Below are positions 8,043 through 8,128 of a DNA stretch of 64,000 bases, one piece after another. Origin of the DNA: Escherichia coli (GTDB lineage Bacteria; Pseudomonadota; Gammaproteobacteria; Enterobacterales; Enterobacteriaceae); assembly GCF_029227855.1 (NCBI RefSeq), contig NZ_CP074356.1; one strand, given 5' to 3'. The notes under the pieces were generated by a model, which did no database searches, was not told where the DNA came from, and saw only the letters and a program-made list of their open reading frames with translations. The first letter of the stretch is position 1; each line of letters begins with the position of its first letter. A program made the translations under genes and the position numbers.

Positions 8043-8128
8043 AACTGTCTGATGCGCTACGCTTATCAGGCCTGGAAAGATGCACAATCGAGTAGGCCGG
8101 ATAAGGCGTTTACGCCGCATCCGGCATG
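8043..8128. repeat. REP / BIME-type repetitive extragenic palindromes (two inverted REP units)
   Basis: tgatgcgctacgcttatcaggcctg ... gtaggccggataaggcgtttacgccgcatccggca; classic E. coli REP motifs in the yggL-yggN intergenic region. Confidence 0.75.

Follow-up and report, generated by a model that had tools for sequence, protein, structure and literature searches.

Among the repeats of Escherichia coli intergenic DNA, REPs are the most abundant, and catalogues of them date back to the 1980s. E. coli REPs, or palindromic units, have been described as types that include Y and Z1 (Stern 1984; Gilson and Bachellier; Ton-Hoang 2012, PMC3333891). A BIME-1 consists of one Z1 and one Y unit in a single copy, with a long conserved L linker that often binds IHF (PMC3333891); the whole element is about 140 bp long, and its loci are reported as present or absent among isolates (PMC1187871). 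BIME-2 and atypical BIMEs carry tandem Z2–Y modules and vary in length between strains (PMC3333891, PMC1187871). REPINs are REP doublets that form a long hairpin and are mobilized by a REP-associated transposase, RAYT (Bertels and Rainey 2011, PMC3116915).

The E. coli RAYT requires a GTAG tetranucleotide and a bulge in the stem (PMC3333891, PMC8266576), and the enzyme tolerates no mutation of the GTAG (PMC8266576). Its gene, rayT (yafM), is confined to a single locus beside yafL, and many strains have either lost it or carry hicAB in its place (PMC3333891). At the level of RNA, the REP325 element in yjdM–yjdN, which has 12 units, is a documented partial Rho-dependent terminator and stabilizer, and the genome-wide picture is one of no uniform REP effect on mRNA half-life and large variance from locus to locus (bioRxiv 10.64898/2026.03.23.713779). 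Tandem and convergent gene pairs are the contexts of about 99% of E. coli REPs (bioRxiv 10.64898/2026.03.23.713779).

Here we describe two REP sites in a stretch of 64,000 nucleotides of E. coli chromosome (the window). Both are an already known kind of element, and nothing about them is unexpected.

Results

REP units at two intergenic sites

The window corresponds to about 3.05–3.10 Mb of the K-12 chromosome, in reverse orientation. The two closest complete genomes are JNEC-KY178, which is 100% identical to the window across 25 kb, and MRSN346647, which is 100% identical at both REP sites. We note some features of the window away from these sites. Genes for a TRAP transporter that are absent from K-12 lie between yggM and hemW (12029–14864, minus strand) and encode DctM (433 aa), DctQ (170 aa) and DctP (328 aa), all three with strong Pfam matches. 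Rfam models place a Sib antitoxin RNA at 58083–58233 and 6S RNA (ssrS) at 58882–59065, both on the minus strand and both expected for this region.

As search queries we used three E. coli REP type consensuses (Y, Z1 and Z2), whose strings were checked independently by the genome-wide copy number of the units. Each type was searched separately because loop length differs among Y, Z1 and Z2, and one fixed-loop degenerate pattern matched nothing. An exhaustive Hamming scan that included half-sites covered the whole 64 kb. A reading made earlier from the sequence only had proposed a pattern search with the REP consensus as the check on its REP palindromes, and that search identified units with 0–3 mismatches, while 0 of 100 dinucleotide-preserving shuffles of the window gave any REP match. 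The units and the features around them are as follows:

8028–8157, plus strand: insertion of about 130 nt, found only in Escherichia by comparison with other Enterobacteriaceae; it carries the 79-nt REP pair with flanks of 19 and 32 nt
8047–8075, minus strand (GTAG-first convention): degenerate Z1-type REP unit, 3 mismatches in 29 positions, 0 expected by chance
8076–8091, no strand: linker of 16 nt, AAAGATGCACAATCGA, between the GTAG-side ends of Z1 and Y (head-to-head)
8092–8125, plus strand: Y-type REP unit, 1 mismatch in 34 positions, 0 expected by chance
8156–8185, plus strand: intrinsic-terminator-like hairpin (8156–8175) with a T-rich tail, from a terminator scan
19514–19542, minus strand: perfect Z1-type REP unit, 0 mismatches in 29 positions, 0 expected by chance
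19554–19571, plus strand: remnant of a Y unit, loop and distal arm only, from a half-site match and alignment with K-12 and other alleles

The exhaustive scan detected no further REP units elsewhere in the 64 kb. Queries holding the units had a median of 14–27 matching places per E. coli genome. The view that these are normal E. coli features was borne out by the consensus matches, which identify both loci as REP/BIME sequences. No Rfam family matched at site 1 or site 2, and the RefSeq record of K-12 has no repeat features at either locus, hence no official REP number can be attached to them. Our literature search found no paper linking yggL or yggN with REPs; in the supplement of a 2026 REP preprint, yggN appears only in differential-expression tables unrelated to the site-1 REP (bioRxiv 10.64898/2026.03.23.713779).

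RefSeq annotation of the matching genomes, together with the map of open reading frames, places site 1 between the codirectional genes yggL (stop codon at 8012–8014) and yggN (ATG at 8198) and site 2 in the gap where yggR (stop codon at 19480–19482) and ruvX (stop codon at 19597–19599, minus strand) converge. Both pairs of neighbours had been named correctly in the sequence-only reading. The two sites thus represent one tandem and one convergent gene pair, and both are extragenic and at the 3′ ends of genes. Site 1 starts 32 nt past the yggL stop codon and site 2 starts 31 nt past that of yggR, with the end of the Y remnant 25 nt from the stop codon of ruvX. REPs that inhibit translation reportedly lie within about 15 nt of a stop codon, as described by Liang, Rudd and Deutscher in 2015; with these distances we rejected both sites as candidates for that class.

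Anatomy of the yggL–yggN site

Two inverted REP units had been proposed at 8043–8128, and the interval indeed holds a Z1 unit at 8047–8075 and a Y unit at 8092–8125. The Z1 unit, GTCTGATGCGCTACGCTTATCAGGCCTGG on the plus strand, has CCTGG in place of CCTAC and a C-to-T change in the stem at 8048. Because CCTGG replaces CCTAC, the tetranucleotide of this unit is CCAG and not GTAG, which is lost at 8072–8075. The CCTGG is common to K-12, and another E. coli genome (L028) has an intact CCTAC. The Y unit, GTAGGCCGGATAAGGCGTTTACGCCGCATCCGGC on the plus strand, has its 5′ GTAG intact at 8092–8095.

The Z1 units of both sites are predicted to fold into 8 bp, a 1 × 1 mismatch and 2 bp, and the 8 + 2 bp hairpin at site 1 has an energy of −10.5 kcal/mol. 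The Y unit folds into a stem of 7 bp and 4 bp around the conserved 2 × 2 internal mismatch (−20.9 kcal/mol, z = −4.5). Z1 and Y can also pair with each other across the linker, and this pairing is the minimum-energy fold of 91 nt (−35 kcal/mol, z = −3.18); in a context of 149 nt, separate Z1 and Y hairpins compete with the long Z1–Y fold.

The arrangement of site 1 is that of BIME-1, with one Z1 and one Y in inverse orientation and in a single, non-tandem copy. It departs from BIME-1 in its linker, which is 16 nt long and has no IHF consensus, a comparison with the L linker that concerns its stated properties and not its sequence. Indeed, the IHF consensus WATCAANNNNTTR, allowing up to one mismatch, is absent from the whole of 8015–8197, and we therefore rejected IHF binding at this site. 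A further difference is that only 79 nt are repetitive, the 19-nt and 32-nt flanks occurring once per genome, and that the site is nearly fixed. Because it has neither the long IHF-binding L linker nor the repeated extent of about 140 bp, site 1 would be an atypical BIME in Bachellier's scheme. We also considered the flanks as BIME 'A/B' motifs and rejected them because they are single copy.

Origin of the site-1 pair and the yggL terminator

To place site 1 in its phylogenetic setting, we used a degenerate pattern for the C terminus of YggL to locate yggL–yggN junctions in a single genome of each species, and resolved them in 93 Enterobacterales species. Among these, the REP pair was found only in E. 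coli, E. albertii and E. whittamii, in a spacer of 182–183 nt. The spacer is 48–58 nt in 55 species of other genera, including Salmonella, Citrobacter, Klebsiella, Enterobacter, Kluyvera and Kosakonia, and these short spacers consist of a hairpin, a T tract and a ribosome-binding site and nothing else. This comparison across species leads us to conclude that the REP pair arrived on an insertion of about 130 nt in the Escherichia lineage, exactly 5′ of an ancestral terminator; a G run leaves up to 4 nt of uncertainty in the boundaries of the insertion. The whole site-1 spacer is present in 5,333 of 5,426 E. coli genomes (98%), and the distance between the site-1 flanks was constant in every genome sampled.

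The terminator-like hairpin lies directly 3′ of the insertion and about 30 nt downstream of the REP pair. All 8 of its 8 pairs are kept in 21 diverse Enterobacteriaceae sequences, with compensatory changes at 2 pairs. The hairpin and its tail (8156–8185) are the ancestral 3′ end of the yggL transcript and are context of the REP, not part of the repeat. The hairpin is only about 12 nt away from the ribosome-binding site of yggN. We asked separately whether a REP acts as an intrinsic terminator (REPt) and rejected this, as no REP hairpin has a T tract directly after it; none of the units is overlapped by a terminator-like site, the only such site being the separate, older hairpin at 8156–8175. 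Site 1 resembles REP325 in that its REPs lie between tandem genes, in the 3′ untranslated region of the upstream gene; it differs in having two units and not 12, and in the separate intrinsic terminator that follows.

Unrelated insertions of 100–250 nt are found at the corresponding place, after the yggL stop codon and before the terminator, in a Pluralibacter MAG (L062), in Erwinia-like genomes (L082 and L056) and in Mixta (L038). The Pluralibacter insertion is one that we take to resemble two ERIC/IRU-type repeats. This place seems to tolerate the arrival of small repeats.

An open reading frame of 46 residues (8037–8177, plus strand) runs across site 1, and PGAP annotates it as a hypothetical protein, WP_001296361.1, in several genomes. 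We give practically no credence to the idea that encoding this protein is what site 1 does: the frame is almost wholly REP sequence on an insertion absent from other genera, it is left unannotated in most genomes with identical DNA, and it continues through the terminator hairpin.

A polymorphic site between yggR and ruvX

The REP that had been assigned to 19513–19575 is partly as described. One complete Z1 unit is present, GCCTGATGCGCTACGCTTATCAGGCCTAC on the plus strand, with GTAG intact on the minus strand at 19539–19542. The site does not hold a full pair: of its Y unit, the loop and distal arm are all that remain (19554–19571, TTCACGCCGCATCCGGCA), and the proximal arm is missing. The half-site GCCGGATGCG matches at 19561–19570 on the minus strand, and a GTAG at 19547–19550 may be the original tetranucleotide of the remnant or may be there by chance. 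Set against K-12 and other alleles, the remnant lines up position by position with their complete Y unit, and site 2 is therefore one complete unit and half of another.

Spacers of 114, 162, 173, 174, 183, 190 and 212 nt were observed between yggR and ruvX in the sampled E. coli genomes. These alleles range from one and a half to three units, with a Z1-like unit, a Z2 and a Y in K-12; the 114-nt allele of the window is found in 596 of 5,426 genomes (11%). Site 2 shares with BIME-2 and atypical BIMEs the variation in modules and in length among strains (114–212 nt). It differs from them in the window, where there is no tandem Z2–Y and the search found no Z2 unit, whereas other alleles, including that of K-12, have Z2 and Y. 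With no Z2 and no complete pair, the allele of the window is therefore a minimal, partly deleted form. The difference between alleles may be a deletion, or it may be the gain of a Z2–Y module in other strains, and the nine aligned alleles fit either. The equivalent spacer in three Citrobacter species is 49–61 nt long and has no REP.

No intrinsic terminator was predicted in the site-2 spacer. Its only strong structure is the Z1 hairpin, which forms in both transcripts, and a single IHF-like match with one mismatch lies at 19487–19499, outside the REP units.

These details bear on whether the two sites act on DNA, as places where IHF, DNA gyrase or DNA polymerase I binds or where the nucleoid is organized through contacts, functions that have been put forward for BIMEs. 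Such roles have been reported, for IHF at BIME-1 and for gyrase at BIME-2 and atypical BIMEs (PMC2817692, PMC3333891). We regard this as quite unlikely for the present sites: the site-1 pair has a 16-nt linker and not a long L, with no IHF consensus in or beside it even at one mismatch; the one-mismatch IHF-like match is all that site 2 offers, away from its units; and neither site has the tandem Z2–Y array linked to gyrase binding. In addition, REP–REP chromosomal contacts or nucleoid compaction were looked for elsewhere and not found (bioRxiv 10.64898/2026.03.23.713779).

We further observed that the yggR–ruvX spacer of a Salmonella enterica subsp. diarizonae genome (L046) has 871 nt, compared with about 50 nt, and ends beside ruvX in a GTAG-tagged REP-like palindrome. 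It may represent an independent colonization of the equivalent site by a repeat.

Comparison with the E. coli REP family

Taken together, the two sites share with the E. coli REP family the match to a type consensus at 0–3 mismatches, the imperfect palindrome with an internal mismatch, a GTAG foot in two of the three complete units, the extragenic position at 3′ ends and tens of copies per genome. They show no essential difference from it; GTAG is lost from one unit, and half of another is deleted. Every defining feature of the family that we tested is present, except for the lost GTAG of the site-1 Z1 unit.

The status of rayT

We found rayT in 3,575 of 5,426 complete E. coli genomes, so that about a third have no rayT. 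In the two closest complete genomes, the yafL–flhA interval contains hicB (JNEC-KY178) or hicAB (MRSN346647) instead of rayT, and neither blastn nor tblastn matched K-12 RayT in those two loci or in the window; no rayT homologue turned up in the 128 kb examined. The loci taken by these toxin–antitoxin genes lie outside the window, at 16808–17161 of L134 (JNEC-KY178) and 23027–23654 of L132 (MRSN346647). In JNEC-KY178 the locus sits next to a lateral flagellar (Flag-2) cluster that looks intact, whereas the K-12 cluster is degraded.

Judged by their letters, two units, Y at 8092–8125 and Z1 at 19514–19542, appear to have the prerequisites for the enzyme (GTAG, stem, bulge and a nearby CT). The REPs of this strain are nevertheless probably orphans that are no longer processed by a resident RAYT, as seen from the canonical rayT locus in the nearest genomes. 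To describe them as potential RAYT targets, as the sequence-only reading did, is true of REPs as a class and doubtful here, given CCAG in place of GTAG in one unit, a missing arm in the Y of site 2 and the replacement of rayT.

It is very unlikely, in our view, that both sites are active RAYT substrates in this strain and are now being cut, moved or amplified. The two units named above do keep the GTAG, stem and bulge that the enzyme needs (PMC3333891, PMC8266576), and the gain or loss of modules among strains at site 2 fits the published amplification model, but the single known rayT locus is taken by hicB or hicAB in the closest genomes with no homologue in 128 kb, site 1 is of constant size in every genome sampled, and of the remaining units one is without GTAG and the other without an arm. 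For the same reasons the likeness of site 1 to a REPIN is limited. Its two inverted units are able to pair as one long imperfect hairpin, but rayT is missing from its locus in the closest genomes, and the pair is old and fixed and shows no sign of recent movement.

One could imagine that the yggR–ruvX spacer is a hot spot in which gain and loss of REP modules tune the convergent 3′ ends, with the 114-nt allele frozen in a lineage in which rayT gave way to hicAB. We consider this unlikely. If it were true, and if allele type tracked rayT across E. coli, site 2 would offer a natural gauge of how active RAYT is outside the laboratory.

A Y1 transposase gene of another kind lies nearby. An IS200C-like insertion at 8973–9564, absent from K-12, is located between yggN (end at 8917) and ansB (start at 9804). 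Positions 8973–9096 match Rfam STnc490, and an open reading frame at 9106–9564 encodes a Y1 transposase of 152 residues (Pfam Y1_Tnp, E = 4e-38). The enzyme is related to the REP-associated transposases but has ends of its own, and there is no REP at the insertion site.

Discussion

We conclude with good confidence that both sites are ordinary REPs, old insertions in the tails of transcripts, whose effect is most likely passive and exerted on RNA, and which are probably RAYT orphans. Because they are located between the yggL stop codon and the ancestral terminator, both site-1 hairpins are transcribed into the 3′ untranslated region of yggL. Site 1 is a Z1–Y inverted pair brought by the insertion of about 130 nt that entered the Escherichia lineage, and site 2 is a Z1 with half a Y in a 114-nt spacer, transcribed from both sides. 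In the mechanism that we propose, the G+C-rich RNA hairpins would hinder 3′-to-5′ exonucleases and in this way might modestly stabilize the transcripts, and the same hairpins could cause a partial, Rho-dependent attenuation of read-through. The net result would be a change in the expression of neighbouring genes that is at most modest and depends on context. Among the roles described for REPs in such positions, that of an RNA hairpin barrier and partial Rho-dependent attenuator has the best support and has been shown for REP325 (bioRxiv 10.64898/2026.03.23.713779). Stabilization of mRNA, which the sequence-only reading had also mentioned, is plausible here judging by where the units lie. At site 1 a terminator hairpin is already present downstream, and the added protection may therefore be negligible.

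A serious rival to a role for the hairpins is that the units are fully neutral. They would then be genuine REPs that persist as remnants of selfish DNA, tolerated because the spot between stop codon and terminator is harmless, with no measurable effect on their neighbours. We hold this to be possible, if somewhat doubtful. Several observations are in keeping with neutrality: the units are decaying (the GTAG lost at 8072–8075, the C-to-T change at 8048 and the half-deleted Y of site 2), site 2 varies freely from strain to strain, the yggL transcript already has a conserved terminator at its end, and other genera have unrelated insertions at the same spot. The absence of a uniform effect on half-life genome-wide points the same way (bioRxiv 10.64898/2026.03.23.713779). 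What speaks against it is site 1, which is constant in size, present in 98% of E. coli genomes and common to E. albertii and E. whittamii, although this constancy could reflect mild constraint or just the lack of a mechanism of deletion.

Read as ordinary REPs with a passive effect on RNA, both loci behave as expected for their kind and are of small importance. Site 1 also serves as a reminder that the annotated 46-residue open reading frame across REPs, WP_001296361.1, is almost certainly spurious. Three points are of modest value. Through its clean empty-site comparison, site 1 assigns the arrival of the REP pair to the Escherichia lineage and its position to a point exactly 5′ of a conserved terminator. 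Site 2 exemplifies the usual sort of polymorphic BIME locus. Finally, the label of RAYT target should not be attached to E. coli REPs automatically, since rayT is missing from about a third of complete E. coli genomes, the closest relatives of the window among them.
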